From an uncultured Candidatus Saccharibacteria bacterium (GTDB lineage: Bacteria; Patescibacteriota; Minisyncoccia; Phycocordibacterales; UBA9973), in assembly GCA_964544225.1 (NCBI GenBank), contig CAZIZK010000001.1:54856-118855 (forward strand): a stretch of 64,000 bases of DNA, given 5' to 3'. Both the position numbers and the translations under genes were made by a program. Of this stretch, positions 1 through 25,452 are shown piece after piece. The notes below the pieces were generated by a model that saw only the letters and a list, made by a program, of their open reading frames with translations, did no database searches and had not been told where the DNA came from. Each line of letters begins with the position of its first letter. Within the stretch, counting starts at the first letter, position 1.

Positions 1-1114
1 CAAATAATGTATCTTGAGATCTAGGCATTTGAGTATTTTTAAAGTTTTTCATTAACTCAACTTGATCAGGAAAATTTATTTTCTTAACAATTGGATTAGG
101 AAGAATATAAATCTTCATTTTCTCTCTACGACCATATACATGAGCTGAAACAATTGCAGTAAAGTCTGCCGAATCTTTAGAAGAGATGGCGAGGTCAACT
201 CCTGCATAAGTGCCACGGTATGCTTTATGTTTTGTCCCAGGTAATTCATCATAATACTGAATCCACTCAGGATAAATAACTTGATCGTCGCTTGGAATAA
301 TACGAAGTAAATATTCTCGTTGCCATGATATTTCACTAGCAACTTTCATTTTTTCATCCTCTATATCTTTCATATCTGAGTATTTCCCAGGCCATAAACA
401 GACATTATCTTCGTCGAGTAGTGGGTATTGTTTAAAGACACCTTTTGATCGTTTATTTTCTATATCATCCCTTATTCTCATGAGTAATGAATCTTCATGT
501 AAAAGGTTACCAACAGCAATAAGTCTGGTTTTGCGATCTCCTGCAGGTATTACTTCTCCATATAGCCATTGATATGTCTTATCTCGTCCCTCACGAGTTT
601 TAGTTGATTGTACGTCTTCCACGTCGTCACAGATAATCAAATCAGGTCTATGCTCATTATGTCTTATTCCTCGTATACTTTGCTCTGTTGAGGCAACAGT
701 AATACGAGCATTACTTTTATTAAACACCAATGAATATGAACCCCACTCATCACTCTGTTCTTGGAATGGTCCTAAATCTCTTTTTAGCAGATCATTACCC
801 TCAAGCTCACTTCGAATATTCATCATGTGTTGTTTTGCTTGTGTTCTTGTCTGACAGAAAATTAAACAGAACTTCTTTTGTTGTTTGCCAAGTATTGCCC
901 ATATTGGGTATGCAGTTGTAACCATTGTGGATTTACCAGATCCACGGAAAGCAACAACATATAAATTCTCTGTATCACTATTTTCTAAATGATGGATTAT
1001 TTCTTTCTGAAAATCTGCTGTCTCGTATTTTACATAATGGGCATAATAGAAATGGAAGAAATATAAGAAACTATCTCTTGTTATAGATGTTCTTACAAGT
1101 CTATCTTTCATCAT
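1..1114 (-). CDS. Phage terminase large subunit (TerL); start ATG-ATG at 1114..1109, C-terminus lies beyond the left window edge, so it is absent from the ORF track
   Basis: Manual minus-strand translation gives MMKDRLVRTSITRD...ENLYVVAFRGSGKSTMVTTAYPIW (Walker A) and ...RPDLIICDDVEDVQS (Walker B/ATPase coupling), typical of T4 gp17-like terminases. The open frame runs through position 1. Confidence 0.7.
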   Translation of the reverse strand, partial: MMKDRLVRTSITRDSFLYFFHFYYAHYVKYETADFQKEIIHHLENSDTENLYVVAFRGSGKSTMVTTAYPIWAILGKQQKKFCLIFCQTRTQAKQHMMNIRSELEGNDLLKRDLGPFQEQSDEWGSYSLVFNKSNARITVASTEQSIRGIRHNEHRPDLIICDDVEDVQSTKTREGRDKTYQWLYGEVIPAGDRKTRLIAVGNLLHEDSLLMRIRDDIENKRSKGVFKQYPLLDEDNVCLWPGKYSDMKDIEDEKMKVASEISWQREYLLRIIPSDDQVIYPEWIQYYDELPGTKHKAYRGTYAGVDLAISSKDSADFTAIVSAHVYGRREKMKIYILPNPIVKKINFPDQVELMKNFKNTQMPRSQDTLF

Positions 1115-1142
1115 CCTGTTTACTAAACCGTTTTCAATGATT

Positions 1143-1559
1143 TTATTCATGGCTTTTCTTTTCGTTAATATTTTTAATAGATTTCGACTTAGTAATTGAG
1201 GCAAGCTTAAGTGCCTGTTTTACTATTTTTGCTTGTGATGGAGTAAGTTCTTCTTTGTCTTCTTTTGTTGTGATTTCTATCTTGTCTCGGTAGTTATCAT
1301 TTCTGTGTTTTAACCAAAAAGAAATTGCTGACCAATTTTTCTCTTTGATCATTGTCAGGAGTTGGCTTTCACTCATATCATTCACAAAGGCAACACCCTC
1401 AGACATAGCTTTATCCATTTTGGCAGAGAAAGATTTATCATCTTTTTTCCAACGATATACACTATTTCTAGATACTCCTGTTTTCTCACATGCTACTTGC
1501 ACGATAGGAACTTTTTTCAATTCTTCAAAGAATTGATCTTGTGATTTATTTTTCTTCAT
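1143..1559 (-). CDS. Terminase small subunit-like HTH DNA-binding protein
   Basis: 138 aa with N-terminal HTH (ACEKTGVSRNSVYRWKK), lysine-rich, immediately upstream of terL in the same orientation (TerS-TerL order). Confidence 0.45.
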   Translation of the reverse strand: MKKNKSQDQFFEELKKVPIVQVACEKTGVSRNSVYRWKKDDKSFSAKMDKAMSEGVAFVNDMSESQLLTMIKEKNWSAISFWLKHRNDNYRDKIEITTKEDKEELTPSQAKIVKQALKLASITKSKSIKNINEKKSHE

Positions 1560-2829
1560 AAGATTTTATCTGAGCTTTTTTACCAGTAAATAATTCATAA
1601 CGTTTTATAATCAAATCACAAAACTTTGGCTCTAGCTCTAAGCCATACACTCTTCGACCTAATTGTTCACCTGCAAGGAGAGTGCTACCTGAACCCAAGA
1701 AACTATCTAAGATTATGTCATTTGGCTTTGTACAGCGTTTTATAGCCTTTTCATGGAGGGTTATAGGCTTAGAAGTTGCATGTTCATAATCTTTAGCGGA
1801 AAGTCTTTTAGCAGTCCAAATCTCAAGAAAGTCATCGACTTGTGCTACAAGTTCATTTCCTGTTCCGAATTCTTTATTTAATACCTCATTAAGGGTTGTT
1901 ACTGATTCAGCAAGATAAGGTCGTCCACGAATACCATACACCGCAGGTTCATATGCTTTATTGCAGAATATTTTAGGGACAGGATTTTGCGAATTTTTTA
2001 GCCATAGGCATACTCGTTTATTAGATATACCAAGTGATCTGTATATATCCTGAATTAATCCTATGTAGACTTGATCACAATAATAGAAAACGTGCGTACT
2101 CGGATTAGATACAGTAAGTGCCGATTCTAAACTTTCTCGAATAAATGTTTTATATTCTTCAAAAGTTCTAGAATCTTTTACACTTCCGCCATATTCTTTA
2201 TTTCCACCAATCCCGCCATCATAGTCTATATCTAAGTTATACACTGGGTCTGAATAGATCATTGAAACTTTCTCTTCGCCTAATAACCTTTTTAGATTTT
2301 CAGGTTTAGTTGAATCACCACAAAGAATTTTGTGTTTCCCGAGAATAATAATATCTCCTAATTTTGTTTTAGGTTCCTTTATTTTCTTTAATTCCTTTTC
2401 AACATCGAAAGAATCATTTTTAACTTCTGCATCTTCATCCCAAAATTTTGCAATTTCCATATCTTCAAATCCTGCGAGTTGAAGAAGCTCCATATCAAAA
2501 GATTTAAGAGCTTCAAAGTCCCAAGACCCACCCAATTTATTTGAGGCAATAAGATATTGTTTGGATTCTGATTCTGTGAGTTTACGATTAGGTATCCTTA
2601 CATCAATTATTTCTTCTCCACGATCTAATAGTTGCAAAGCCCTTATTCTTTGATGTCCTGCTAGTATCATTCCATCACTATCAATAGCAGGAATCTCGAC
2701 TAAATTATATTTCTGCAAACTTTTCTTAATATCTGACATTTGCTTGTCAGAAATTTTACGAGGATTGATCTTTTGAGGAATAAGATCGTTAACCTTTCTT
2801 TGGACCGTAGTCCATATGAGTTTACTCAT
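1546..2829 (-). CDS. ParB-like nuclease domain fused to beta-class DNA N6-adenine/N4-cytosine methyltransferase
   Basis: N-terminal ParB-like segment (ILAGHQRIRAL), MTase motif IV-like SDPVYN (DPPY variant) and motif I LDSFLGSGST. Paralogous to 26189..27457. Confidence 0.75.
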   Translation of the reverse strand: MSKLIWTTVQRKVNDLIPQKINPRKISDKQMSDIKKSLQKYNLVEIPAIDSDGMILAGHQRIRALQLLDRGEEIIDVRIPNRKLTESESKQYLIASNKLGGSWDFEALKSFDMELLQLAGFEDMEIAKFWDEDAEVKNDSFDVEKELKKIKEPKTKLGDIIILGKHKILCGDSTKPENLKRLLGEEKVSMIYSDPVYNLDIDYDGGIGGNKEYGGSVKDSRTFEEYKTFIRESLESALTVSNPSTHVFYYCDQVYIGLIQDIYRSLGISNKRVCLWLKNSQNPVPKIFCNKAYEPAVYGIRGRPYLAESVTTLNEVLNKEFGTGNELVAQVDDFLEIWTAKRLSAKDYEHATSKPITLHEKAIKRCTKPNDIILDSFLGSGSTLLAGEQLGRRVYGLELEPKFCDLIIKRYELFTGKKAQIKSYEEK

Positions 2830-2984
2830 ATTATTTTATTAATAAATTTAATAAAATGTATAGAGATAGAAAAAGCCTATTCCGTACACGAAATAAATAA
2901 AAGTCCGATATAACTTCGATCTATTTCTTGCGCGGAATAGGCATGGCTTTTAGGGCGCTACACTACTCGCTTTTTACTACGCAC

Positions 2985-3431
2985 TTATATTTTACCAACC
3001 TGTTCTTGTTTTTCAAGTCTTCTCAATATGCGCCTACCTTTTTTGCTATCCATGAATTCAACTGTATCTTTTCCAAGGAAAACTGGTAATCCTTTTGGCT
3101 TTCTTATAAAAACCCTTTTTCCTTGTTCTCTGTAACGTTGAATCAAAGGCAACATTTCATCTGGATTAAAGATTGGCATTGAAAAAATCACTGTATTGTT
3201 TTCTAAAACCCTGGCATGGTTATTAGGAAAAGTGATTCTCCCAGGTTGATTTGCTTCTATGGAATGTTCAATAGTTTTACTCATCGATTGAGTAACTCGT
3301 GCATTAGTATGGAGTTGAAAGTCAGTCAACTCAATAATAATATCGCCATTGCACGGATCATGAATCGCTGGATGTATTACTAATTTTTCTTCCATACCTA
3401 GAGTATATAATAGGGTGGTGTAAAATGTCAA
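2985..3431 (-). CDS. Hypothetical protein (probable true start at internal MEEKLVIH), divergent from the repressor gene
   Basis: ORF of 148 aa with no recognisable motif. It sits between the MTase and the repressor. Confidence 0.35.
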   Translation of the reverse strand: MTFYTTLLYTLGMEEKLVIHPAIHDPCNGDIIIELTDFQLHTNARVTQSMSKTIEHSIEANQPGRITFPNNHARVLENNTVIFSMPIFNPDEMLPLIQRYREQGKRVFIRKPKGLPVFLGKDTVEFMDSKKGRRILRRLEKQEQVGKI

Positions 3432-3465
3432 ATCTTTATTGCAAAATCGTTTAAACTATGCTATA

Positions 3466-3481
3466 CTGTATCTATGCACAT
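3466..3481 (+). promoter_or_regulatory. Candidate SOS-box-like operator CTGT-N8-ACAT overlapping the repressor start codon
   Basis: ctgtatctatgcacat is one mismatch from the gamma-proteobacterial CTGT-N8-ACAG; tatact (-10-like) lies just upstream. This is a weak call. Confidence 0.2.
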
Positions 3482-4112
3482 AATACAAAAACAACTTTTA
3501 GACTTAATAGCGACACATGAGGACTTTGGATCTTATAGCCTTAGGAAGATAGCTGAAATGGTTGGAGCCAAGGGAAAACCCCAAACTGCCAAATATCACT
3601 TACAACAGCTTGAGAAAGATGGACTAATTCAATTAAACCTTGAGGCTGGAATCATAAAGCTAGTTAAAAGAGGTTATGCTAAAGCTTCTACTAGCCCTAT
3701 CTACTCCCTACCAATAGTGGGATCTGCTAATTGTGGTCCTGCTACTATATTTGCAGAACAGAATGTTGATCAATATTTAAAAATATCTTCATCAATGCTA
3801 CCAAGAAACAAAAGTAATCTGTATGCCCTTATTGCTGATGGAGATTCAATGAATAATGCAGAGGTTGAAGGAAAAACTATTAAAAGCGGAGACTTCGTTT
3901 TGGTCGATAGTGAATATAAGAACTATAAGACTGGTGATATCGTAGTTGCTGTTATAGACAACATGGCAACTATAAAAAGATTCCGAGAAGATAAACCCAA
4001 TAATAGAATTATCCTTGAGGCTGATTCAACAGAAAAATATCTCCCTATATTTATTCATGAAGGTGACAATTTCTTATTAAGTGGAAAAGTAGTCGGTATT
4101 ATTAAAAGTTAA
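3474..4112 (+). CDS. LexA/phage CI-like repressor (N-terminal winged HTH plus C-terminal S24 self-cleaving peptidase)
   Basis: GDSM serine nucleophile and the lysine in TIKRF match the LexA Ser/Lys dyad. The N-terminal segment is HTH-like. It is the first gene of a six-gene operon with 5-23 nt gaps. Confidence 0.8.
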   Translation: MHIIQKQLLDLIATHEDFGSYSLRKIAEMVGAKGKPQTAKYHLQQLEKDGLIQLNLEAGIIKLVKRGYAKASTSPIYSLPIVGSANCGPATIFAEQNVDQYLKISSSMLPRNKSNLYALIADGDSMNNAEVEGKTIKSGDFVLVDSEYKNYKTGDIVVAVIDNMATIKRFREDKPNNRIILEADSTEKYLPIFIHEGDNFLLSGKVVGIIKS

Positions 4113-4125
4113 TTTATAAAAATAT

Positions 4126-4368
4126 ATGTCAAATTATCATGTAACAAACCCAAAAGGTTCAAATGATTGGAAAGTAATAAAAGAAAAAGCAGAAAGAGCT
4201 TCTGTAATAGTAAGCACTCAAAGAGAAGCGGAGAAAATAGCAAAAGAATTATCAGGTAATTCTGGTGGTGGAGAGGTTGTAATCCATAAACCAAACGGTG
4301 GTCCAATAAGAGATAAAGATACTGTAGCCCCAGGTCGAGAAAGTTCAGTTATAGACAAAAAACATTAA
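4126..4368 (+). CDS. Small DUF2188-like protein
   Basis: 80 aa; the pattern YHV..DWKV...A.RASV..T..EA..IA...A...GGGEV.IH resembles DUF2188. Confidence 0.35.
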   Translation: MSNYHVTNPKGSNDWKVIKEKAERASVIVSTQREAEKIAKELSGNSGGGEVVIHKPNGGPIRDKDTVAPGRESSVIDKKH

Positions 4369-4385
4369 AAAATAAATATAAAATT

Positions 4386-4757
4386 ATGAAAAGAATATTT
4401 ATTAGTTTTGCGATTGAAGATAAATTATATAGAGATTTTCTTGTTGGACAATCTAAGAAAGAAGAATCCCCGTTTGAATTTGTTGATATGTCAGTAAAAG
4501 AACCCTGGAAATCTGATTGGAAAGATAAATGTTATTCAAAAATAATAGGTTGTGATGGAGTAATTGGTTTAATAAGCAAAAATACTCCTAAGGCTTCTGG
4601 AGAATTATTTGAGTTAGAATGTGCATATGACGAAAATGTGCCTGTGATGCTAATGTATATTAATGATGATAGACCTGCTCTTCCGTCATTTTTAAACAGC
4701 AAAAGAGTAAACATATGGAGTTGGAGTAACTTAAAATCTTTTATTAGTAACCTTTAA
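4386..4757 (+). CDS. TIR-like domain protein (DUF1863 / ThsB-like)
   Basis: Begins with RIFISFAIED... (FISF plus an acidic residue) and has a conserved Glu in ELECA, as in MTH538/ThsB-type TIR-like domains. Length 123 aa. Confidence 0.5.
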   Translation: MKRIFISFAIEDKLYRDFLVGQSKKEESPFEFVDMSVKEPWKSDWKDKCYSKIIGCDGVIGLISKNTPKASGELFELECAYDENVPVMLMYINDDRPALPSFLNSKRVNIWSWSNLKSFISNL

Positions 4758-4762
4758 TATAT

Positions 4763-5731
4763 ATGCGTAAAGCTCTAATTGTTGGTATTAATAATTACCC
4801 AGGTAATCCACTCAAAGGGTGTATAAATGATGCATCATCATTTAAAACTGTTATTGAGAAAAACGGTGACGGATCACCTAATTTTTCTACAAGGCTAGAA
4901 ACTGATGTTCCTACAAAATCTCAACTCAAAACAATGCTAAAGGAATTATTTGAGGGTGATAGTGACATAGCTTTATTTTATTTTTCAGGACATGGATCTT
5001 TTAATGAATTTGGTGGTTATGTAGTTACCCCAGATCATCAAGAAAACGATGAGGGAGTTTCTATGGATGAAATTTTATTGCTTGCCAATAAGTCAAAAGC
5101 AAAAGATAAAATTATTATATTAGACTGCTGTCATTCAGGTGCATTTGGTTCTCCTGCAAGTACTGGTGGTACATCTTGTCAGATAATCGAAGGTGTTGTT
5201 GTTCTAACTGCAAGCAAATCCAGTGAAAGTGCTATTGAAATTAATGGTCATGGTATTTTCACAAATTTATTGATTGATGCATTGCAAGGTGGTGCAGCTG
5301 ATCTTCGTGGTCATATAACCCCTGGTAGTGTTTATGCATATATAGATCAAGCATTAGGACCTTGGGATCAAAGACCAGTATTTAAGACAAATGTAACTAG
5401 GTTTACATCTCTAAGAACAATAAATCCACAAGTTCCAACTGAAACACTTAGAAAAATAACTGAGTATTTTCAAACAGCTGAGCAAGATTACTCTCTAAAT
5501 CCATCTTATGAAGACACGAATTCGGAAGATATTAAACATTCTATTATTGAACCTCTCGCTAAAACAGAAAATGTTGCAGTATTTAAAGATTTGCAAAAGT
5601 TCCAGAGTGTAGGTTTGGTTATTCCAGTAGACGCACCTTACATGTATTTTGCTGCGATGGAGTCAAAATCATGTAAATTAACAGCACTTGGTTATCATTA
5701 TTGGAGACTTGTTAAAGACGGTAAAATATAA
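4763..5731 (+). CDS. Caspase-like cysteine peptidase (Peptidase C14 / metacaspase-like) with a C-terminal domain of unknown function
   Basis: ALIVGINNY...NDA...FYFSGHG (catalytic His) and IIILDCCHSG (catalytic Cys), the canonical caspase-fold dyad order. The remaining ~150 aa are unassigned. Confidence 0.7.
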   Translation: MRKALIVGINNYPGNPLKGCINDASSFKTVIEKNGDGSPNFSTRLETDVPTKSQLKTMLKELFEGDSDIALFYFSGHGSFNEFGGYVVTPDHQENDEGVSMDEILLLANKSKAKDKIIILDCCHSGAFGSPASTGGTSCQIIEGVVVLTASKSSESAIEINGHGIFTNLLIDALQGGAADLRGHITPGSVYAYIDQALGPWDQRPVFKTNVTRFTSLRTINPQVPTETLRKITEYFQTAEQDYSLNPSYEDTNSEDIKHSIIEPLAKTENVAVFKDLQKFQSVGLVIPVDAPYMYFAAMESKSCKLTALGYHYWRLVKDGKI

Positions 5732-5740
5732 TAATTAATA

Positions 5741-6394
5741 ATGCGGTCTTTGGAACAAGTAGCAAGAAAAATAAACTTCCATATTGAAAAGAAAAAACCA
5801 CCAGTTATTAATGAAAAATGGATTAAAGTAAATTCTCCAGCTTCTTATAAATTCATAATTGAAAATTCTATTGATTGGGACACGGTAACAATAAATCTTG
5901 ATAAGTCATACCAAGGAAAGTGGAATAAGTGTTCTAAAAGAAAAAGATACTTAGATCAAGAATTTTATAAAGATGAGGAAGAACTAAATCAAATATTAAA
6001 TACTCATAAAGATAAACTTTATACTTTTGTAAGTAGAATAAACAAAGAAGATGAACTTGTTTGTGACAGAATAAGTATTTTATTAGTTAGACTAGCTCAA
6101 AAAGGTAATACTCTTGCTTTGATAGAAATTAAAAGCCTATATGTTTTTATAATAGATAAGTGGCTAGAAGAAAGTAAATATTTAAAAAGATGGCGTGGCT
6201 ATGAAGAGGAATTAGTAGCACTACTAGAGAGGTGTATTTTCAGATATAGATACTCTGGTACATTTATTGGTTATTTATATAGAACTCTCCAGTTAAGTGC
6301 TTTAGCTTTAGAGCCATTAGAAGCATATTCACTAAATGACAAGGTCTTTGATGGGAATAAAACCAGAATAGACTTTATATCCTGTGAAAATTAA
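5741..6394 (+). CDS. Hypothetical lysine-rich protein in the repressor/TIR/caspase operon
   Basis: 217 aa, no recognisable motifs; 9 nt after the caspase gene. Confidence 0.4.
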   Translation: MRSLEQVARKINFHIEKKKPPVINEKWIKVNSPASYKFIIENSIDWDTVTINLDKSYQGKWNKCSKRKRYLDQEFYKDEEELNQILNTHKDKLYTFVSRINKEDELVCDRISILLVRLAQKGNTLALIEIKSLYVFIIDKWLEESKYLKRWRGYEEELVALLERCIFRYRYSGTFIGYLYRTLQLSALALEPLEAYSLNDKVFDGNKTRIDFISCEN

Positions 6395-6417
6395 CAGGCT
6401 TTTGATACAATAAACCA

Positions 6418-6921
6418 ATGACTATACTAATTATTTTTGTAATCTTAATGGCGGTTGTTTTTATTGTTTTAAAGAAATTTTTCCCAGATATATTTAATGG
6501 CGAGGAGAAAGTAATTAAGTCTCCATATAATTACAAAAAGAAAGACTTTTTAATGAGTCGTGCTGAACATGAGTTTTTTGATATTCTCATTGAGGTTGTA
6601 GGAAATCAATATTATGTATTTCCACAAATACATCTATCAACTATTTTAGATAATAAGGTTGTGGGACAAAACTGGAGAGGAGCATTCCGTCATATTGATG
6701 AAAAGTCAGTTGATTTCGTTATTTGTGATAAAGCATATATCAAACCAATTCTTGCTATTGAACTTGATGATAAAACACACGAAAGAGAAGACAGAAAAGG
6801 ACGAGATGGAGAAGTAGAACGTATTCTTAAAGAATCAGGTCTGTCTCTTTTAAGGTTTGGTAACAATGGGAGCTTTAATAAAGAAGAAATAAAGCGTTTG
6901 ATCTTAGAGAAATTAAGGTAG
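6418..6921 (+). CDS. Membrane-anchored DUF2726-family protein (PD-(D/E)xK-like nuclease fold)
   Basis: N-terminal TM helix followed by MSRAEHEFFDIL...YYVFPQIHL...VDFVICDK...ILAIELDDKTH...RD..VERIL.ESGL.LLRF, which matches the DUF2726 core. Confidence 0.6.
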   Translation: MTILIIFVILMAVVFIVLKKFFPDIFNGEEKVIKSPYNYKKKDFLMSRAEHEFFDILIEVVGNQYYVFPQIHLSTILDNKVVGQNWRGAFRHIDEKSVDFVICDKAYIKPILAIELDDKTHEREDRKGRDGEVERILKESGLSLLRFGNNGSFNKEEIKRLILEKLR

Positions 6922-7160
6922 GTTTTATATAGAAAAGTTACAGTTGAATGTAACCTTTAACCTCAATCCCGTGTCACTTTTGTCACTTTTCTAATTCGCA
7001 CGAGATACGTCGATTTGATATAATAAAATTATTGGAAATAACGTTACAGGGCTTGTCAGTGAAAAGTCCTAACACGAGTGTCCCCGCATTGACAACCTGT
7101 TAGTTTTGATGACCCATTTAGTTATGTACTAAGTGCGACCCACAAAGCTTCATGTTGCAG

Positions 7161-7199: not shown

Positions 7200-8444
7200 T
7201 TAATGCATATCCATAGATTCAGGCATGCTCGTACTACTTTTAATTTCCTTAAATATACTTGGATTTTCATCTCCTGTTACATCAAGTACTGCCCAAGCAC
7301 CTTTATTCATTCTTGCTAGTGCGTGATCTACAAGTAAATATTTACCTGGAACATCAACAGTGAATTCTACAATACTCGCTCCACCAGGAAGTACAGCGGT
7401 TGCTTGTGTATTGTGTTCCATCGCACCACCTATACTTGCATTTGGATACACGGTATCAAAAATCTCACCAATTACATGGAAAGAAGAGATCAGATTTACT
7501 CCACCATTGCCGACATACATACGAATTTTATCACCAACTTTTGCTTGCATTCGTGGTGTTGTTTCGATACGGCCATTGAAAGTTACATAGTTAGGATGAC
7601 CATCGAGAAGGGCATCAGGATCAAATGGCACCAACCCTTTTTTACCAAGCTGTCCAATGGTGTATAGCTCTCCTTGCATAACATAAAATTCTTTATCGAC
7701 TTCTGTAAACCCTTCTTTTGGATCAACTAAAATCATTCCATATTGTCCATGTGAATTGTGTGTAGAAACATTTGGCGTTGCGCAGTGATAAATATAAAGA
7801 CCTGGGTTTAATGCTTTCCATCTGAATGTTTTTGTTTCTCCAGGTGCTACATGAGTAACTGACGCTCCACCTCCTGGACCTGTAACTGCGTGTAGATCTA
7901 TGTTGTGGTCATGTAGACTTGATGGGTCATTTGTCAGTGTTAATTCTACCGTATCCCCCTCGCGTATACGAAGCATTGGACCAGGAACTTGTTTGTTGTA
8001 TGTCCAGTAGTTGAAATAAATTCCAGGAGATATCTCTCCGAGGACTTCTTGTGCAGTCAAACTAATACGCACAATACCGTCTGCGTCAGGTGCTTGTGGT
8101 TTTTCTGGAACAGCTGTCGGATCTGCACCAATATCTGCGACTTTATCGAAACGATTTTCATATCTAAAAAAGTCTATAATTTTAGCAAATGGGATAGATG
8201 GAGGGAGTCCACCCGGAGCGTGTGAATGCACAAATGCTGGCATAGCAAAATCAGGAGGATAAGTTTTGTTTGCCACTAGTCCTGTGAAAAAAGAAATCAC
8301 AATTAGAGCCACTGGAATGTAAAGCCATTTTTGCTTAAAAATTGAATGGAAATGACCTTGTTTCCATATATATCGCACAATTATGACAAAGGCTATAAAA
8401 CCTACTATTCCAGATATCATTTCAAAAATAAGGTATTTAAACAT
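7200..8444 (-). CDS. Copper-containing nitrite reductase (NirK)-like two-domain multicopper oxidase, membrane-anchored
   Basis: N-terminal TM helix; cupredoxin-type ligand motifs HDHNIDLH, YIYHCATP (Cys) and HGQYGM (Met). Confidence 0.55.
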   Translation of the reverse strand: MFKYLIFEMISGIVGFIAFVIIVRYIWKQGHFHSIFKQKWLYIPVALIVISFFTGLVANKTYPPDFAMPAFVHSHAPGGLPPSIPFAKIIDFFRYENRFDKVADIGADPTAVPEKPQAPDADGIVRISLTAQEVLGEISPGIYFNYWTYNKQVPGPMLRIREGDTVELTLTNDPSSLHDHNIDLHAVTGPGGGASVTHVAPGETKTFRWKALNPGLYIYHCATPNVSTHNSHGQYGMILVDPKEGFTEVDKEFYVMQGELYTIGQLGKKGLVPFDPDALLDGHPNYVTFNGRIETTPRMQAKVGDKIRMYVGNGGVNLISSFHVIGEIFDTVYPNASIGGAMEHNTQATAVLPGGASIVEFTVDVPGKYLLVDHALARMNKGAWAVLDVTGDENPSIFKEIKSSTSMPESMDMH

Positions 8445-12486: not shown

Positions 12487-12888
12487 TTAAGTAAAATTAA
12501 CCACGAAGTTAAACATTCCCATACTACATAGACCTTGGAGTGGAACTCCAGCTTTTGGTGTACCGATATCGATAACTTCTTCCCCAGTTTGAGCTAATAT
12601 TTTTTGATAGCCAATTGATCTGATAACTAAAGATGATGAACAGTCGTACGTTCCATTTGTTTTGACAATTAGTTTAGTTGGGATCCCTGCTTTTGCAGTA
12701 GACATTTCTGGAGAATATCCACCTTTTGCATCTATGGTTACATACTGAATACCATCTCTAATTTCTACATTTTGTACTGTCTGTACTGAAACTGCATTAG
12801 AGTTTTTAGACTTTGATCCACCCCAAAATACAATGGCAAGTCCAACCACAAGAGCTAAGGTAACAATGATTAAAGAAGTTTTGTTCAT
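12487..12888 (-). CDS. Secreted/anchored cupredoxin-like copper-binding protein (putative)
   Basis: N-terminal signal/TM; C-terminal Cys/Met-containing QGLCSMGMFNF; position in the cop operon. Confidence 0.35.
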   Translation of the reverse strand: MNKTSLIIVTLALVVGLAIVFWGGSKSKNSNAVSVQTVQNVEIRDGIQYVTIDAKGGYSPEMSTAKAGIPTKLIVKTNGTYDCSSSLVIRSIGYQKILAQTGEEVIDIGTPKAGVPLQGLCSMGMFNFVVNFT

Positions 12889-12905
12889 AATGTAATTATA
12901 TCAAA

Positions 12906-13913
12906 TTAAATATTAAATAAAGGATTAATAATACCGAGCCCTGCAAGTCCTGCGAGAAGTGCAAATATTCCAAGACCTATGACTACAACTCCTGCTGACT
13001 TAAAGAAAAGTGGTGCATGTTTTCCATGAGCAAGTGATGCTCCACCAAATGAGAGAAGTAAAAGTACCGGAAGAGTACCGAGAGCAAAGGCAAGCATTAT
13101 AAACATTCCAGATATAAATGACCCACTAGAGAGTGCCACAACTTGCATAGACTGAGTGAAGCCACAAGGCAAGAAGAATGTACCAAAACCTATAATTAAT
13201 GGTGTTAGAGTTTTGTGTTCAATTTTACGAAAAAAATTGAAGATTCCTGAAGGCAGTGCAATTTTATTCTTTTCAAACACTCCGACTAAATTGAGTCCTA
13301 AAAGGAGCATTACTGTTGAGGCTACAATTCCTAAAATTGCAGTAAATGTAAAACTAATACCAATTGCATTACCGAGCAATCCAAGTACTCCACCAAGCAT
13401 TGCAAAACTAACGAGTCTCCCAACATGGAAAAGTACAAATGTTTTCTTGTCACTTACATCATCTTGTGAGATCTTTGCTGAGAGTGAAAGCACAAACCCT
13501 CCGACTACAGCAAGACAGCTAGATACAGAAGCGATGAGTCCAATAATGAAGCTCGTAACTGGTGTAGCATTCCCACCAATACCAAGGTTTAGTAGTCCTG
13601 ACTTTTGTAATATAAAGAAAAGTATTAAAAATCCTAAACCTATAGGTAATGCTTTCCAGATAACATCATCTTTTTGTTTCTCTTTTAAAACTTTTTCTAT
13701 TGATACCGTATATCCATTTGGTCTTATCTTTTCAGTTAGAATACCTGCTAATTCTTCTTGTGACCTTTCACTACTAGTTTCTACTTGTAAGGTTTGACTC
13801 TTTAAGTTTACCTGTGCATTTTTAATGTAATCTTGCTCGCTCAAAATATCCTCGATCAAGATTTTACAGGATGCACAATGGGTACCTGAAACATGGAATG
13901 TGTATGTTTTCAT
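12906..13913 (-). CDS. Heavy-metal-associated (HMA) domain fused to a DsbD_2/CcdA-like polytopic membrane protein
   Basis: N-terminal GTHCASC HMA motif, then about 6-8 TM helices including an FLPCG motif. Confidence 0.6.
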   Translation of the reverse strand: MKTYTFHVSGTHCASCKILIEDILSEQDYIKNAQVNLKSQTLQVETSSERSQEELAGILTEKIRPNGYTVSIEKVLKEKQKDDVIWKALPIGLGFLILFFILQKSGLLNLGIGGNATPVTSFIIGLIASVSSCLAVVGGFVLSLSAKISQDDVSDKKTFVLFHVGRLVSFAMLGGVLGLLGNAIGISFTFTAILGIVASTVMLLLGLNLVGVFEKNKIALPSGIFNFFRKIEHKTLTPLIIGFGTFFLPCGFTQSMQVVALSSGSFISGMFIMLAFALGTLPVLLLLSFGGASLAHGKHAPLFFKSAGVVVIGLGIFALLAGLAGLGIINPLFNI

Positions 13914-13915
13914 AA

Positions 13916-16186
13916 TTATAATTTCTTCGCCTTAATTCTTAATGAGTTCGATACTACAGAGACACTTGAGAATGCCATAGCAAGTCCTGCGAATGCTGGA
14001 TTTAACAACCATCCAAATACTGGATAGAAAAGTCCTGCGGCGAGAGGAATACCAACCACATTGAATATAAAAGCCCAAAAAAGATTTTGTTTAATACCTC
14101 GCATTGTCATCTTCGACAGCTTTATTGCTTGTGAAATCTTTGAAACATCACCACCAAGAAGTGTGATACCTGCTGATTCAATAGCAACATCTGTACCTGT
14201 GCCCATAGCGATACCAACATCCGCTTGAACAAGAGCTGGGGCATCATTTATACCATCACCAACCATTGCAACAATTGCACCACCATCTTGTAACTCTTTT
14301 ATCTTTCCTGCTTTTTCTTGAGGTATCACTTCTGCAATAACAGCATCAATGCCTGCGAGTTTTGCTATATAGCTTGCTGCTAAATAGTTATCTCCTGTGA
14401 GCATTATTACTTTAATATTTCTTGCATGGAGTTTTGCTACAGCTTCTTTTGACTCTTCTTTTAGAGTATCTGAAAGTGCGATAAGTCCGATCTGTTTTTT
14501 ATCAACTTCTATGATAACAACTGTCTTACCTTGTTCTTGTAGTTCTTTGATATTATCTGTAGCAGGGACACCTTTAGATGGCTTATGGATTGCTATATGT
14601 TTATTACCAATCACTCCTTCTACCCCGACACCTTCGAGTGCTTGGAAATTTGTAACCGTTTCAAGAGGTATGTTTTGTTCGGTTGCCTTAACAACAACAG
14701 CATCTGCGAGAGGGTGTTCAGAAAGCTTTTCTACACTAGCACTTGCTCGTAGTATATCTGTTCCTGTCCATGCAGTATCAAGAGAGATAATATCGGTTAC
14801 TTCGGGTTTTCCTTTAGTGATTGTTCCTGTTTTATCAAGGACAACGGTATCTACATGACTAAGCTTTTCTAGGGCTTCAGCATTACGAATAAGGATTCCA
14901 TATTCTGCTCCTTTTCCAACACCGACAATGATTGCCGTTGGAGTAGCAAGACCAAGTGCACAAGGACAAGCAATAACAAGGACACCAACGAAAGAGAGAA
15001 TGCCGTATGAAAGAGCAGTCGAGAAACCGAGCGCTGATGCACCTACAGTAAGCCAAAGAATGAGAGTGATTACTGCTATACCTAGGACAATTGGCACAAA
15101 GACGCTGGAAATTTTGTCAGCGAGCGCCTGTATAGGAGCTTTTGATCCTTGTGCATCTTCAACCATTTTTATGATTTGAGCGAGTACAGTATCGGAGCCG
15201 ATTTTTGTCGCTTTAAATTTAAAATTACCTTGTTTATTGATTGTTGCACCTACAACAAAGTCTCCAGTCTTTTTATCAACAGGAATTGGCTCGCCTGTAA
15301 TCATTGATTCGTCAATAGATGAATATCCTTCAACGATAACTCCATCAACAGGAATTTTAGATCCTGGCTTTACGATAAGAATATCGTCGATTTGTACTTC
15401 GCTTACAGGTACTTCCACCTCAGCACCATTACGCCATAGTAAGGCGGTTTTTGCTTGAAGACCAAGAAGTTTTTCTATTGCTTCACCAGTACGAAGCTTT
15501 GAGCGTGCTTCGAGATATTTTCCCAATATCACGAAACCAATTACTACAATAGTTACATCAAAATAAGTGGTTTCAGGAAGTTTCAAGGCTATCCTCATTA
15601 AAGGGAAGAGCATAATGCTGATACTGTACAGATACGCAACAAGTGTTCCAATACCAATGAGGGTATCCATATTAGCGACACGATATTTAGTAAATTTTAC
15701 TACTCCTTGTAAAAAGGGTTGTCCAATCCAAAACAATACAACGCTCGCAAGTACCATAGAGATGGTGTTGAAGATAAACATTGGTAACGGAAGATTTGGA
15801 ATTGAAGTAAATAACTTTGCACCGATATCCCACATCATTAAAATAAAAACAAGAAGAGCTATTGGTAACACGAACTGTGTTTTTGTCTTCATAATAATAA
15901 GCTCTTTCATTTTTTCATCTTTTGATTGATTGATACCTGTATGCATACTATGGTCTTCCATGGTATGAGAGTTGGTTTCCTCAATGAACATATAACCCAA
16001 CTTTTCAATTTCATTGTTCATTTGGGGTACAGTAACAACATTGTCATCAAAAGAAACAATTGCTTTTTCCGTCGCGAAGTTAACATTAACAGTATCTACT
16101 CCTTCAAGTTTAGAAACCTTATTGGTGATAATAGTTGCACAACTAGCACAGTGCATCCCTTTAATTTTTAGTGTTTTATTTGTCAT
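13916..16186 (-). CDS. copA: Copper-translocating P1B-type ATPase
   Basis: HMA GMHCASC, membrane CPC ([11 protein letters not shown]), DKTGTIT phosphorylation site, [10 protein letters not shown] hinge. Confidence 0.9.
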
Positions 16187-16200
16187 ATAGGGATTTGATA

Positions 16201-16764
16201 TTAAATGTTATACCATTGTGTTCTCCAATCTTTGAAGAGTTTTAATGTTGTTGTAAGGAATATATCAACCGCATCGGCATTGTTCAAAATTTCAGTTCTA
16301 CTTGATTTTGTTTTTATTTCTTTTGTCATGAGTAATCCTGACTCATGGTGTGCAATAAGTGCATTAAGAAAACGGAGGTCAAATTTCTCATCATACGTCC
16401 CAAGGTTTGAGACAATTGGATCTTTGACTTGCTTTGTATCCCCATACCAGTCTTTTTTCCATGTGTATAGCTCAGCAATTGCTTTTGGTTCATCTCGAAG
16501 AATCATTACGGAGAGGTCTTTCATTTCTTGTCGCTGTGTCTGTGTGCTTGCTTGTGTAGCTAAAAGCATGGCTCCTCTGTGGTGAGCAATCATTGCATTG
16601 ATATAACGAAGATCGAGTGTTCGATCTGGACGACCTAAATCCATAGTTGTTTTGTCGTACATACTCACTTTGTAGTCGGTGGTACTGGCATACCCAGCAA
16701 CCCACCCCAAAACGCCTGTCACTACCATAAGAGAAATTGCTAATGTGGTTGAAATTTTAGACAT
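16201..16764 (-). CDS. DUF305 family protein (copper-resistance associated)
   Basis: Two repeats carrying the IAHH motif ([22 protein letters not shown]); N-terminal TM. Confidence 0.7.
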
Positions 16765-17120: not shown

Positions 17121-18449
17121 TTATTTTACCAATGTAATCTTCTTATCATTCAGCACCAACCTACTCCTCAAATGTCCCATCAGTTCACGCTTCTCTAGTG
17201 GTGTGCCTTCCCTCAGCACATACTTGGCATACTCTCTTGTATTCACGTCATCTTCGTTGATGTTGTATTTTGGCGTTCCCTTGGTTGCCAGTCGTTGCAG
17301 TCTATTAAATCGCTTGATTTCTTCTTCAAGCTTGATTCGCATACCTAGTTCGTTGATGCTTACTTTATCTATGACTTTGAATAGCTCCTCAATCAGTTCT
17401 TCCTCTCGTATATATTTATTCTTGCAATTCCTGTCTCTTGCCTTTGAACAGGAGTAGTAGACATACTTGGCGGTCGTTCCATCTTTGAGTTCCTTGTACT
17501 TCTCCTGTGCCGTTATACCTGACTCACACATTCCGCAGGTAAATAGTTTAGTAAATGCGAACTCTCTGTTTTCTCTCACAATCCTATCTCGCTTTAAATG
17601 TGATTGGGCTTTTTCAAATAATTCTTTGGTGATGATTGGTGTATGACTTCCTTGATACCAGTTGTCACTATTTCTCGGATATTCAAATGGTCCATAATAG
17701 ATTGGCATTTCAAATATTCGATACACTCCTGATAGTGTAAGGGGCTTATTTCCTCGAGTGTAGAAATTCAGATCGAATCGCAACCAGTTATATACCTTTC
17801 TTCCGCTCCATCCATCGTATGCAACTTTCTCAAACATTTGTTTGATTACATGAGCCCGATCTGGGTCAATAATTATCTGACACTTCCTATCCATTAACTT
17901 TTGATTCAAATATCCAAGCGGTGCCATTCCAGGCCATAGCCCCATCTCTACTCTCGTTCGCAATCCTCGCTTTACATTGATGCCTCTGTTGTCGTTCTCA
18001 AGTTTCGCTTGGCTTCCCAATATCATCAGGAGAAACTTCTCGTTTGGATTGTTTCCGAATGTCTGCCCGAAGGTTCGTATCATGTGCAATTTTCCTGCAT
18101 CCATCAGGTCTACGATTTTTCCCAAGTCTCCTGCATTTCTTGAGATACGATCTGGTGCCCAAGTAAGTATCGCATTGAATTTCTCTTGCTTGAGTTCCTC
18201 AATGATTTCGTTGAAGACTGGTCGCTGTCCTGTTTCCTTTGCACTATGACTCTCACGCTTCATGGTTACTACTTCAAGCCCCTCACGATCCGCTAATTGG
18301 AGCATCTCGCTAATCTGGCTATCAATACTCAATACCTGCCGTTCCTCAGACTCTGTTGATTTTCTTGCGTATAAGCAATATCTGATCTTCTTTGGTTCGA
18401 CTACTACTTTTGCTACACCTTGCTCCATATTTGGGTTTTCTATCTTCAT
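17121..18449 (-). CDS. Large serine recombinase (resolvase/invertase N-terminal domain plus recombinase and zinc-ribbon domains)
   Basis: N-terminal YARKSTESEE...SIDSQ (catalytic Ser region), C-terminal Cys cluster CGMCESG...YSCSKARDRNC. Confidence 0.85.
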   Translation of the reverse strand: MKIENPNMEQGVAKVVVEPKKIRYCLYARKSTESEERQVLSIDSQISEMLQLADREGLEVVTMKRESHSAKETGQRPVFNEIIEELKQEKFNAILTWAPDRISRNAGDLGKIVDLMDAGKLHMIRTFGQTFGNNPNEKFLLMILGSQAKLENDNRGINVKRGLRTRVEMGLWPGMAPLGYLNQKLMDRKCQIIIDPDRAHVIKQMFEKVAYDGWSGRKVYNWLRFDLNFYTRGNKPLTLSGVYRIFEMPIYYGPFEYPRNSDNWYQGSHTPIITKELFEKAQSHLKRDRIVRENREFAFTKLFTCGMCESGITAQEKYKELKDGTTAKYVYYSCSKARDRNCKNKYIREEELIEELFKVIDKVSINELGMRIKLEEEIKRFNRLQRLATKGTPKYNINEDDVNTREYAKYVLREGTPLEKRELMGHLRSRLVLNDKKITLVK

Positions 18450-18592
18450 ATCTACATTGATGACGCAAATCGTCCAAGGAGCCTAGAGCGTCCCATTGCC
18501 ATAGTGTTGGTAACTAAAACGCCTTTATTTAAGGGTCATTTTTTGGTAAAATGTATTTACTGGCGTAAGAAACTTATGCCTAATATTAAAGT

Positions 18593-21112
18593 ATGAAAAT
18601 TTTTATTCGCAATAATTTATATCGCTCAAAAAAATTTTGGCTCATAAAAAAATGGTTTGAAGAAAAACCAATTTTTAGCTTTTGGGCAAAGATCTTTAAA
18701 CTCGACTTTAATATAAATAAGGGTAAATATTCGGCACGCTTATTGTGGCCTTCAATTTTTCCATTCATTCGGACACTTATCTATTCTATTTTTATAATCG
18801 CAATTTTTGAAACGTACAGTTACTTTTTTCCAGTGGATCAAAAAATATTTAGTGATCAGGTTACTGATACACTACTTTCGGCGATTGCCAGTGTATCCGG
18901 TGTATTCCTTGGTCTTTATTTTACGGCTGTTTCCAGTATCGCAAGTAATTTTTTATTACGTGCCACTCAAAATATAAGGCGCTACTTCCTTTCGACTCCA
19001 ATTGGAGAACAATACGTTAGGACCGTAGCCCTTACGGGTATCATAAGTATTTTTTATCTGTTGGCAAAATCGTTTGGACACCCAATACACCCAGTTGGCT
19101 TAGTATTTCTTTGTATTGCTGGAGCATATATCATAATCAGATTTTGGAGTGTTGGATCAAATGTTTTCTATTCATTGGAACCAACTGTTGCCCTGCCTTC
19201 AATCGGTAAAAACATTGCAGACCTATTGAAGGGGGTTACGCCACCGGGTTTTAAATGGGATAAACCAGCAATACAAAATCATCAAAGACGCCTAGTGTCA
19301 GACAATTTGGAGCTTGCTAAAGACCTTATTGATTTTGGAATTAAAGAGATAAAGCTTTCAAATGAACAATTACATATTGCTCTTCGTTATTTAGGTGGTT
19401 TGCTTTTTTTATATCCTCAATACAAGAAGAAGATACCGACTAATAGCTTTTGGTTCAAAACAAAAAATCAGTACGATAGTTGGACCTTAGCGGATTCAAC
19501 ACAAATCGCGCTTGCCTTAAACACTGGCACAAGTTTGCAACCCAAGACAATCAAAGATTTTACTTGGTTTGAAGAAGAAACTTTGGATATGAGTGTAAAG
19601 ATTTTTGAGTTTTACGCCAAAGAGAAAAATGTTGCCTCTGTATTCCAAGGACTAGAACTTTTTGTAGAAATCGCTGAAGTTTATGCGAGTGAGTTTGATG
19701 AGGAAGGACTAAAGCTTCTTTTACAGAAAACAGAAAAGGTTGCAGGATTGGTCGACCTAGAAAAAGTAGCAGATCCAAAAAATGTTCGGTACAAAGAACA
19801 AATGGCTTTTATTGATACTCAAGGCCGGTTAGCTATAGGGGCGGTGCTTGGATTGGCTAGGTATCTTGATACTGCTTCTGCGGAAAGCTTATCCACGACT
19901 ATTTCAAATATTAAGTGGTATTCAAATAAAAACATTTATCTTACAGGGCTACCTTTGTCGGTTCTATCGCGTCTGGAATCTACTGCAAGTGATTTAAAAG
20001 CTGAAATGCTAATTGAGGGTAGGCAGCTTTCCCCTGAGTGGTATATACGCACTCTTTGCGTTCAGAAATACTTATTCGCACTCTTAGGTTATTTCAAATA
20101 TCTAAAAACCCTTCATTCAACTTACTTTGAACCAAAGCTTGGAAAATTGCTTGCCGAGGATCAATTAGGTCTTGCTGTTCAATTGGTGCAACGCTGGATC
20201 GAGTTTACTCACAAATATAATCGGCTCGTTGGATTGATTGCAAAACATATTGAAGATTGTGTACCTTATCACCAAGTCAAAGATCTTTCTTGGATAGAGT
20301 TTAGTGCAGACGAAGAGTATAAAACCGCAAGGGACCGCGAAAAAGAAGTAGCCGATAAAATGATTAGATTGTTGCCTCGATTAATGACAATGCCTACCGA
20401 AAGCGATATGCCAGACTACTTTGGGCAAGCTCTTACGCAAGGCGTTCAGGCCTGTTATGAGGCGTGTGAGGAGAACGACCCAGTCAGGTTGAAAGCAATA
20501 TTCCCGGTTGTTTTTATAGCTTCACTTTCGGCTTTTGATATGACGAGAGTGAGAGTTCAAAACTGGTCCGAAGAACAAAGCAAAATAATCTATTCAACAG
20601 AACCTCTTATAAATCTCTACGAACTAAGTGGATTTGCTAAATTGTATTCAGAGCTCTACCAAAACACGGAGCTTTGGAATGTTGTGCAAACACCGTGGGA
20701 CACTTATTTGGGTGGTATCGATGCCGTACAAGAAATTACACGCATCGCGGCCATTACTAACTATCGACGTGGACTTTTCATGATCATGCCACAAGCAACC
20801 TTACGAACAAACTGGCAAATGCGATTTAGTAATAAAATGAGAGAACAAGGTTTAGCTGTTTTCCCCGATAGTAGAAGCTATGACTATGTAAATGGCCGAG
20901 AAGATCCTGCGCATGCGAGCGCGATTATTCGTGTAGTTACTCGATCAGGTGGTTTGAGTTTATCTACAGGTCAGACCGTATTTTTCGTAACATATTTATC
21001 CCAACACCCAGGGGCAACAGGAATTGATCTACCAGACCAACGCGACATGAGAGAACAAATACAACGAGAAGAAGAAAGATCTAATGAGGAAGAAAATAAT
21101 GACTATGAATAA
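18593..21112 (+). CDS. Large hypothetical protein (839 aa), N-terminal multi-TM anchor plus large soluble region, acidic C-terminal tail
   Basis: Long intact ORF with four predicted N-terminal helices and no recognisable catalytic motif. Visibly GC-richer than its neighbours. Confidence 0.5.
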   Translation: MKIFIRNNLYRSKKFWLIKKWFEEKPIFSFWAKIFKLDFNINKGKYSARLLWPSIFPFIRTLIYSIFIIAIFETYSYFFPVDQKIFSDQVTDTLLSAIASVSGVFLGLYFTAVSSIASNFLLRATQNIRRYFLSTPIGEQYVRTVALTGIISIFYLLAKSFGHPIHPVGLVFLCIAGAYIIIRFWSVGSNVFYSLEPTVALPSIGKNIADLLKGVTPPGFKWDKPAIQNHQRRLVSDNLELAKDLIDFGIKEIKLSNEQLHIALRYLGGLLFLYPQYKKKIPTNSFWFKTKNQYDSWTLADSTQIALALNTGTSLQPKTIKDFTWFEEETLDMSVKIFEFYAKEKNVASVFQGLELFVEIAEVYASEFDEEGLKLLLQKTEKVAGLVDLEKVADPKNVRYKEQMAFIDTQGRLAIGAVLGLARYLDTASAESLSTTISNIKWYSNKNIYLTGLPLSVLSRLESTASDLKAEMLIEGRQLSPEWYIRTLCVQKYLFALLGYFKYLKTLHSTYFEPKLGKLLAEDQLGLAVQLVQRWIEFTHKYNRLVGLIAKHIEDCVPYHQVKDLSWIEFSADEEYKTARDREKEVADKMIRLLPRLMTMPTESDMPDYFGQALTQGVQACYEACEENDPVRLKAIFPVVFIASLSAFDMTRVRVQNWSEEQSKIIYSTEPLINLYELSGFAKLYSELYQNTELWNVVQTPWDTYLGGIDAVQEITRIAAITNYRRGLFMIMPQATLRTNWQMRFSNKMREQGLAVFPDSRSYDYVNGREDPAHASAIIRVVTRSGGLSLSTGQTVFFVTYLSQHPGATGIDLPDQRDMREQIQREEERSNEEENNDYE

Positions 21113-22151
21113 ATACTTTAAAAAAATTAAAGAGGTGGTGTTGGCCTACTTAAAAGATCCTCTTTTATTGCGAAAGTGGGATCAACCAGATTATTACCGA
21201 TATAGAGGACGTGGTGATAATAATAATCAGTTGTCATTCAGGAGTTCACGAAACAGACGTCACAGGTACCATTATCACGGTACGTCTTCAATGTTCATTG
21301 AAGATATGTTTAGCGGAATAATGCCGTTTATGATTTATAGCGGCGTTAGAGAAAAGTATCCTGCAAAAATTGAACCAGCCGCACCCGATAAAGAAGCAAT
21401 AATTGCTCAAGGTCTTTCTGGTCGCAGGCATCGAACAGCATTAGGTGAAGGTCTTTGTGATTTTGTGCGTGATACAGCACATGTGCTTTTTCAAGACGGC
21501 TTAGCAATATACGAAATTATTTATAAAAAGAACGAAACTGGAGAAACCGAAAGCTATAGCTTTGAATTAATGGATCATTATGGTCTATATAGATTTTTTG
21601 GTAATTACTATCAATTTGTTTCTTGGGCTGATGCAAAGGCTTCACATACCAAAGTTCAAATAATCAAAATACCAAAAGAAAAAGTATTACGCATCGAGTT
21701 CCCAAAAGAACTCGGCGGGCAAAAACGTATCAATAAAATATTAAAGCGATCATGGGAACTCGGACAAGAGATTATTCCTAAGTTTCAAATGGACGCAATG
21801 GAAAAACAAGAAAACATTGGCTTTGATTCAAAGATATATACGGAAGCAAAGTATTTAGAAATTGCGACTCTTACAAAAGACTTGGGATGGAACCAGCGCC
21901 AGTTATCAACCAACCATATTACGGAATATTATGCCCTTCTACGTCTTCTTAGGCAGAAAAAAGTAGAAGCTACTGTTCGAGAAAAGATTTTTACCAAACT
22001 TAATGAAGTCTTAAATGGATCAGTTTTAAACTTTGACGCTCAAGTTTCAATGGATAATCTTTTTACAGCTTCTGATATTGATGCACGTGTCAAAAAACTT
22101 ACAGAAGGTAACACAACTTTTATTGATTTGTTTACTGATACAAGTTTTTAA
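21084..22151 (+). CDS. Hypothetical protein (355 aa) overlapping the preceding gene by 29 nt; Arg/His-rich low-complexity N-terminal region
   Basis: The overlapping start implies translational coupling with the 839-aa gene. Confidence 0.45.
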   Translation: MRKKIMTMNKYFKKIKEVVLAYLKDPLLLRKWDQPDYYRYRGRGDNNNQLSFRSSRNRRHRYHYHGTSSMFIEDMFSGIMPFMIYSGVREKYPAKIEPAAPDKEAIIAQGLSGRRHRTALGEGLCDFVRDTAHVLFQDGLAIYEIIYKKNETGETESYSFELMDHYGLYRFFGNYYQFVSWADAKASHTKVQIIKIPKEKVLRIEFPKELGGQKRINKILKRSWELGQEIIPKFQMDAMEKQENIGFDSKIYTEAKYLEIATLTKDLGWNQRQLSTNHITEYYALLRLLRQKKVEATVREKIFTKLNEVLNGSVLNFDAQVSMDNLFTASDIDARVKKLTEGNTTFIDLFTDTSF

Positions 22152-22244
22152 GATTTGAAATTTAGCTGTTGGTAACTCTACTACACAATGAACTCAATCT
22201 AAGCTAAAGTACAAAAATGCCCCTGAAAATGGTATAATTCGTTC

Positions 22245-23365: not shown

Positions 23366-23373
23366 GTTTTGTT

Positions 23374-24870: not shown

Positions 24871-24871
24871 A

Positions 24872-25069: not shown

Positions 25070-25070
25070 A

Positions 25071-25445: not shown

Positions 25446-25452
25446 ATATCAC

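Follow-up and report, generated by a model that had tools for sequence, protein, structure and literature searches.

A compact terminase-carrying integrative element of Patescibacteria with satellite-like gene content

Genes at the left edge of the window

The DNA considered here, referred to as the window, is a stretch of 64,000 nucleotides from an uncultured Candidatus Saccharibacteria bacterium (contig CAZIZK010000001.1, positions 54,856 to 118,855). A compact integrative mobile element found widely among Patescibacteria, the ultra-small bacteria of the candidate phyla radiation (CPR), has its repressor-side two thirds at window positions 1-7090. The genomes of these organisms are tiny, and little is known of their phages and mobile elements. 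The element consists of a 165-nt terminal segment, variable cargo, an S24 repressor divergent from an operon that encodes orf136, a ParB-methyltransferase fusion (ParB-MTase) and the small (TerS) and large (TerL) terminase subunits, a further 0-8 kb of cargo and a large serine recombinase. The element has two cargo hotspots, and the stop codon of the recombinase gene is its far end. The features located in the window are collected in Table 1.

The terL gene runs off the left edge. A minus-strand frame starting at ATG-ATG (1114..1109), whose product begins MMKDRLV, is uninterrupted for 371 codons and open to position 1. An earlier sequence-only reading had placed a TerL fragment here and attributed its absence from the list of open reading frames (ORFs) to the frame being open through position 1. 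Both points were confirmed: ORFs running off the window are unlisted, and the coordinates and translated motifs (VVAFRGSGKST and LIICDDVEDV) are correct. A profile search of the 371-aa fragment against terminase families, proposed in that reading as a check, matched phrog_38 'terminase large subunit' (E=1.8e-63) and six more TerL PHROGs. Pfam returned weak DEAD/ResIII P-loop matches alone, and a phmmer search of the PDB found a T7-type terminase over the ATPase domain (E=4e-5). Full-length relatives have 490-502 residues, so that the last 120-130 C-terminal residues of the window TerL lie off-window; in a full-length relative, phrog_38 covers residues 5-460 and phrog_5573 residues 231-462.

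No variation is seen among 19 TerLs of 60-88% identity in Walker A (FRGSGKST), in Walker B (DLIICDDVED) or at the nuclease positions D307, E373 and H439-D440-D441..D444. An ASCE (additional strand, conserved glutamate) ATPase is present in the window and in relatives, and the acidic residues of a C-terminal RNase-H-like nuclease are present in relatives; the first nuclease Asp (D307, in GVDLAIS) is the sole member of the set on the window. Compared with three related loci (L003, L004 and L005; loci are given here as L numbers), window terL is 91-92% identical in DNA and 98-99% in protein, with a ratio of nonsynonymous to synonymous substitution rates (dN/dS) of ~0.015. The ratio is 0.018 for TerS and, against the same three loci, 0.063 for ParB-MTase. 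Such low values argue that the module is not a decaying remnant. Judged by these comparisons, TerL is under strong purifying selection with its ATPase and nuclease motifs intact, and the gene is predicted to be functional.

The TerL family comprises 4,383 protein clusters at 90% identity, whose public names are 'phage terminase large subunit' or 'DEAD/DEAH box helicase'. TerLs of cultured phages (SuMu-like and Bacillus phages) are 26-27% identical to the family, the strongest match having E=5e-30; the best-covered match is Bacillus phage phi18-2 (H1), at 26.0% identity over 88% of the query. In IMG/VR, every TerL at least 48% identical lies in a module of ParB-MTase, terS, terL and recombinase, and the next relatives, 23-29% identical, are on viral contigs.

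Upstream of terL, the earlier description of a TerS-like helix-turn-helix (HTH) protein and a ParB-MTase fusion is upheld by Pfam and PHROG matches. The TerS-like gene is always directly upstream of terL in relatives, and its product is probably the small terminase. Exact look-ups gave no record of the window ParB-MTase and found the TerS solely on contigs of 0.7-1.1 kb, and no metagenome contig matches window positions 1-35 exactly.

The mechanically called ORF of orf136 begins at TTG 3431, and homologues begin at the Met at 3395. Its product has no Pfam or PHROG match, and an AlphaFold2 model (mean pLDDT 58) was too poor for a fold search. The orf136 slot varies between elements, being occupied by an orf148 homologue, a 200-223-aa family, a 245-294-aa family or a 501-aa protein. 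Within the adjoining switch region, the promoter-like site on the minus strand (TTGACA-18-TATACT, 11/12) is the best in the region and that on the plus strand reads TTGCAA-17-TATACT with a TG, both being consensus matches alone. The repressor is predicted to be self-cleaving; its GDSM and KRF motifs and a candidate Cys-Gly cleavage site were spotted by eye.

Table 1. Positions of the element's features and of related features elsewhere in the window
Feature	Position	Strand	Evidence or remark
TerL, N-terminal 371 aa	1..1114	-	Walker A, Walker B and first nuclease Asp on window
TerS-like HTH protein, 138 aa	1143..1559	-	five weak TerS PHROG matches (E=3e-9 to 1e-4); HTH_Tnp_1_2
ParB-like N-terminal domain fused to N6/N4 DNA methyltransferase (MTase)	1546..2829	-	MTase PF01555 3e-28, phrog_498 2e-84; ParB-like domain phrog_620 8e-24
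orf136, first gene of packaging operon	2985..3395	-	136 aa from Met used by homologues
Switch region, 78 bp, back-to-back promoter-like sites	3396..3473		consensus matches
LexA/CI-type repressor, N-terminal winged HTH and S24 autopeptidase	3474..4112	+	PF00717 9e-21 over residues 80-207; phrog_4 1e-22
Cargo: DUF2188 protein	4126..4368	+	PADLOC candidate defence family PDC-S16
Cargo: 123-aa protein without assigned function	4386..4757	+	travels with caspase-like gene
Cargo: caspase-like C14 peptidase	4763..5731	+	PF00656 1.6e-20; phrog_18397 5e-86; PADLOC caspase 1e-20
Cargo: 217-aa protein without assigned function	5741..6394	+	
Cargo: DUF2726, nuclease-like fold family	6418..6921	+	PF10881 1.5e-28
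Conserved non-coding terminal segment, ~165 nt	6931..7094		nhmmer E=1e-54
Large serine recombinase of second element	17121-18449	-	59% identical to that of L003
LOOT RNA (RF03000)	22254-22388	+	Rfam
MTase of second element	25453-26202	-	
ParB-MTase of second element	26189-27457	-	

Relatives, ends and cargo of the element

Relatives were sought by scanning one genome per GTDB species. They are encoded by 196 stretches, 80 of which were kept (TerL 63-99% identical to the fragment), and gene synteny was counted by blastp over 83 sequences. Most of the 80 kept loci are labelled Patescibacteria, Paceibacterota or Parcubacteria. The order and orientation of the core genes are constant across the 83 sequences, with terL found in all 83, terS in 82, ParB-MTase in 78 and the serine recombinase in 67; the S24 repressor was found in 44, where it is divergent from the packaging operon, and the orf136 family in 34.

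What follows terL is seen in these relatives. In L003, whose TerL is 98% identical, a 490-aa TerL is followed after 93 bp by the large serine recombinase and, beyond it, by MarR/HlyD/FtsX/ABC host genes. The recombinase lies <150 bp after terL in 37 loci; in ~30 others the gap is filled by 0.5-8 kb of defence-type cargo, mostly on the opposite strand. The closest TerL found (P0024, 99% identical) belongs to L211, which shares the repressor-side cargo of the window and continues after terL with a 252-aa gene, a diversity-generating retroelement (DGR; bAvd and reverse transcriptase), a PycTM-like gene, a type III restriction-modification (R-M) system, the recombinase and a host EamA gene. Resolvase, Recombinase and Zn-ribbon domains (PF00239, PF07508, PF13408) were identified in the recombinase of L003 and in a second window copy at 17121-18449.

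Portal, capsid and tail genes are absent between the element ends in >90 related loci from Patescibacteria metagenome-assembled genomes (MAGs), and structural genes are likewise missing from L003, L211, 129 cargo representatives and the IMG/VR members of the family. One 'tail protein' match in the cargo (phrog_7043) was rejected as a tail gene, being a partial domain (profile 649-838 of 1077) in a 303-aa protein. The suggestion in the sequence-only reading that portal and capsid genes lie further left is contradicted by the leftward sequence of these relatives. Its proposal that the window starts inside a prophage or phage remnant survives in part: the locus is a mobile, phage-derived element, and the prophage is not supported, as structural genes are absent in relatives.

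An ordinary temperate or decaying prophage, with portal, capsid, tail and lysis genes just to the left or recently lost, would account for the phage-like arrangement of TerS-TerL after ParB-MTase with a divergent CI-like repressor, and the left flank of the window copy is off-window. Such a prophage is nonetheless highly improbable. None of the >90 loci has structural genes between its defined ends, the ends are precise and conserved, dN/dS values of 0.015-0.06 contradict decay, and the minimal six-gene layout recurs across genomes labelled as many Patescibacteria lineages (4,383 protein clusters). The locus is very probably a compact integrative element and not a prophage. Its gene content further suggests, with about an even chance of being right, a helper-dependent, satellite-like island that would package itself with its own terminase.

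The ends of the element are sharply defined. The terminal segment contains GTTACA-N6-TGTAAC and a tandem GTGACAAAAGTGACA on the minus strand, as well as two CTCG(A/T)G motifs and an extended -10 that points outward. In ~60 loci, nhmmer places a same-strand copy at the repressor-side end. Similarity to L003 and L004, whose elements are ~90% identical, stops exactly after ...GTCCCCGCA, at ~window 7090. At the other end, the similarity between element pairs of 87-92% identity breaks off no more than ~10 nt from the stop codon of the recombinase. A structured RNA was considered and rejected, RNAalifold on 30 diverse copies giving 0 pairs, and the segment is therefore treated as a DNA-level site.

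The conserved extended -10 (TGnTAnAAT; window 6995-7024, plus strand) points out of the element toward flanking DNA, where transcription from it could enter host genes or stop at a flanking terminator to give a short transcript. Intrinsic terminator hairpins are frequent within ~10 nt of the element tip. The left flanks of L024, L032, L047, L016, L072 and L084 have one more copy of the internal CTCG(A/T)G motif, CTCGTGCTAGC-like and 10-20 nt outside the tip. These motifs and terminators may reflect a target preference of the recombinase or tandem remnants.

Complete elements with both ends present (n=55) span 6.0-18.1 kb, with a median of ~9.1 kb, and the smallest (6.0-7.5 kb) have room for the six core genes and one or two small ORFs. 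This bears on the notion of an autonomous minimal virus whose capsid and portal are hidden among unannotated ORFs. Several ORFs without a family match could be enlisted for it, including orf136, the 501-aa protein of L004 and L211 and the 200-290-aa alternatives. Motors of the TerL type depend on a portal and an HK97-fold capsid; neither was detected, the smallest elements offer little more than the core genes, and the gene in the orf136 slot differs between elements. A self-sufficient virus is thus scarcely credible.

Insertions occupy different genomic contexts, and some MAGs carry two copies. To the right of the window copy, host genes start with a 414-aa gene (7200-8444), a candidate NirK-like gene by eye. 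An empty site on this side is provided by L133, whose NirK-like protein is 91% identical and whose DNA is collinear with the window from 8488 to 7094. Past 7094, L133 lacks the terminal segment and all element genes and has a tRNA-like sequence and tRNA-Ser(GGA) there; TGCGG(A/G)GG at the breakpoint is common to the empty site and the element tip.

The tRNA-like sequence is a conserved stretch of ~120-137 nt with tRNA-like ends (window 28996-29115, L003 3361-3508, L133 3372-3508), arranged as GCGGAGG...TTCGAATCTC...hairpin...CCCTCCAC/CGCCCGC. It flanks element tips and fills the empty site of L133 beside tRNA-Ser(GGA). ARAGORN and Rfam do not recognise it, the Rfam scan giving nothing credible; it may be a pseudo-tRNA, an att remnant or an RNA gene serving as target.

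The diversity of insertion sites and the presence of several copies per genome would also suit a serine-recombinase transposon or integrative element that spreads in another way, for example by natural transformation, with the terminase as a conserved passenger or possibly a domestication like that of a gene transfer agent (GTA). The recombinase gene reaching the very end of the element fits as well, as some serine transposons also have their recombinase gene at the terminus. This explanation is quite unlikely. Capsid genes that could form a GTA-like particle were not found, no role beyond capsid filling is known for a complete ATPase-nuclease motor at dN/dS 0.015, and the LexA-type switch indicates induction rather than constitutive transposition. 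Induced, satellite-like packaging remains the preferred reading.

The cargo is variable, 361 non-core ORFs of the family falling into 176 clusters. Defence matches among the cargo representatives include Gabija GajA (1e-141), a ThsB-type TIR protein, a CBASS cyclase and Old/AriA. Other matches are to a reverse transcriptase (3e-112), a Sie-like protein, a Dda-like helicase and type III R-M. A recurrent 8-kb block of DGR and type III R-M lies between terL, or its substitute, and the recombinase. The DGR consists of bAvd, RVT_1 and a target gene of ~250-317 aa (L211 11714-14396, L088 14730-16401, L085 9579-12490).

A sister element, the LOOT RNA and other features of the window

A second, related element occupies ~17121-28959 of the window on the minus strand. 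Its short terminal segment ends at ~28959 (...CGAGTACACCGCCA), and the TerS and TerL positions are taken by an HTH-like protein of 124 aa and a P-loop-free protein of 498 aa. The latter was considered as a divergent TerL and rejected, having no PHROG or Pfam match and no P-loop. In L088 and L089, the same non-terminase module follows a repressor and cargo arm like that of the 1-7090 element.

That the TerS-TerL slot can hold an unrelated module, as for an effector cassette, bears on another explanation, that of an integrative defence island whose terminase does not serve its own transfer. TerS and TerL would then compete for or cut phage DNA or procapsids, or package adjacent host DNA in a manner like lateral transduction. 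The cargo is mostly known or candidate defence genes, and no replication module was found. Against this, conservation and synteny are highest for TerS, TerL and the recombinase and the defence genes vary, a terminase in a repressor-controlled operon with the recombinase fits coordinated excision and packaging, and no precedent for terminase-based defence appeared in literature searches on satellites and terminases, which were not aimed at that question. A terminase that does not serve the element's own transfer is unlikely, though it deserves consideration beside the self-packaging island preferred here.

LOOT RNA is part of this element family and was found in 38/99 sources with a model built from nine Rfam hits (for example, L020 12944-13081 and L008 12388-12514). 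Most copies head a variable cargo ORF on the strand opposite the recombinase, 35-260 nt upstream of it, or follow its stop by 60-85 nt; outliers elsewhere include L033, L094 and L097. Each of the nine copies detected by Rfam has a same-strand ORF after it. This arrangement suggests that LOOT is a leader or regulator of cargo genes.

A copper-resistance cluster lies at window 12487-16764 and encodes a cupredoxin, DsbD-HMA, a P-type ATPase and DUF305. It directly abuts recombinase or terminal-segment ends in the window, L008, L032 and L035, in differing orientations, and may be a preferred neighbourhood or mobile cargo. Elsewhere in the window are a tRNA-Ile with anticodon TAT (36694-36768) and a tmRNA (40771-41164) with an unusually long predicted tag (ANKVASVKSPYAFAFSGSALSFA).

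Possible transfer and place among known elements

The gene content of the element suggests a route for its transfer as a satellite. The repressor would hold the leftward operon silent until derepression, by RecA-stimulated self-cleavage or by a signal from a helper phage. The serine recombinase would then excise and circularise the element. TerS would recognise a site on it, the GTGACA/GTTACA repeats of the terminal segment being candidates, and the TerL motor and nuclease would load element DNA into procapsids of a co-resident helper phage. ParB-MTase may protect the element DNA and the defence cargo may benefit both host and element, which would spread as a phage satellite.

Several points weigh against this proposal. 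A helper phage, packaged DNA, an excised circle and induction are all unobserved, and the mechanism is drawn from the genes. Genes for replication were not recognised, and neither the core genes nor the window gave a match to a primase or replicase family, so the proposal has no evident source of concatemers or packageable substrates. A comparison of the two ends and their flanks gave no convincing dyad or target duplication for att arms. The left part of the window's own copy, with the end of TerL and the recombinase, is off-window, and the layout beyond terL comes from relatives. In the sister elements (L088, L089 and the second element of the window), an MTase and proteins of 124, 64 and 496 aa that lack a P-loop take the place of TerS-TerL, which makes the terminase an exchangeable module and not an indispensable one. 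Lastly, we know of no satellite family that has TerS and TerL without capsid or portal genes.

The element resembles phage-inducible chromosomal islands (PICIs), a group to which the pathogenicity islands of Staphylococcus aureus (SaPIs) belong, in being a chromosomal island of ~9 kb that has a master repressor and an integrase, a probable TerS of its own, accessory and defence cargo and no tail or lysis genes; the median size of PICIs is 9.5 kb (PMC10085698). An integrase is present in 67/83 sequences of the family (off-window in this copy). A TerS-like gene is present too, and tail, holin and portal genes were not found. Unlike in PICIs, the integrase role falls to a large serine recombinase at the far end, whose stop codon marks the boundary, and the regulator is of the S24 LexA/CI type (PF00717, phrog_4) rather than a Stl/AlpA/MerR homologue, a functional analogue alone. 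The element also carries a full TerL, and its host phylum is Patescibacteria. With no primase-replicase or capsid-morphogenesis gene found and a different regulator family, it does not belong to the PICIs. Capsid-forming PICIs (cfPICIs) are defined by capsid, portal, head-tail adaptor and connector genes, with 11 core components (PMC10085698). They encode both TerS and TerL, as the element probably does, but the element is not one of them because it has no capsid, portal or connector genes.

Temperate Caudoviricetes prophages share with the element the canonical ATPase and RNase-H-like nuclease motifs of TerL, the upstream ParB-MTase and a CI-like switch. In contrast to them, it has no morphogenesis, lysis or replication modules and totals 6-18 kb. 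Elements with large serine recombinases, such as phage integrases of this type and TnpX/TndX-type transposons, have the same Resolvase, Recombinase and Zn-ribbon domains and a recombinase at the terminus; the element differs in its many insertion contexts and in a combination with terminase that was not found in literature searches. GTAs, chromosomal gene clusters that include capsid, portal and tail genes and do not move by themselves, differ in turn, the element having no structural genes and being an insertion with an empty site and multiple copies.

Full-text searches of open-access papers on CPR terminases, serine-recombinase elements and satellite elements found no published description of the element, which in that literature is a phage-satellite-like integrative island not previously described. 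It is a broader and more tentative proposition that these loci form an undescribed Patescibacteria family of terminase-carrying phage satellites, or packaging-competent defence islands. Such a family would combine a complete TerS-TerL holoenzyme, a LexA-type switch and a terminal recombinase with a LOOT-headed cargo hotspot, without capsid, portal or replication genes, and its sister module would imply a second hijacking mechanism.

If this holds, the element would to our knowledge be the first satellite-like element described in Patescibacteria, and its design, with a full terminase of its own and no capsid genes, would be one not seen before in satellites. The LOOT RNA motif would gain a genomic home and a testable role, and many natural large serine recombinases would become available together with the mapped ends of their elements. 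Some of the islands are already listed as viral contigs (IMG/VR L083-L087), and recognising them would cut the number of miscounted 'prophages' in CPR genomes. For the hosts, an element family this abundant would serve as a major carrier of defence systems within Patescibacteria, among them Gabija, Thoeris-like TIR proteins, CBASS, reverse transcriptases, DGRs and type III R-M.

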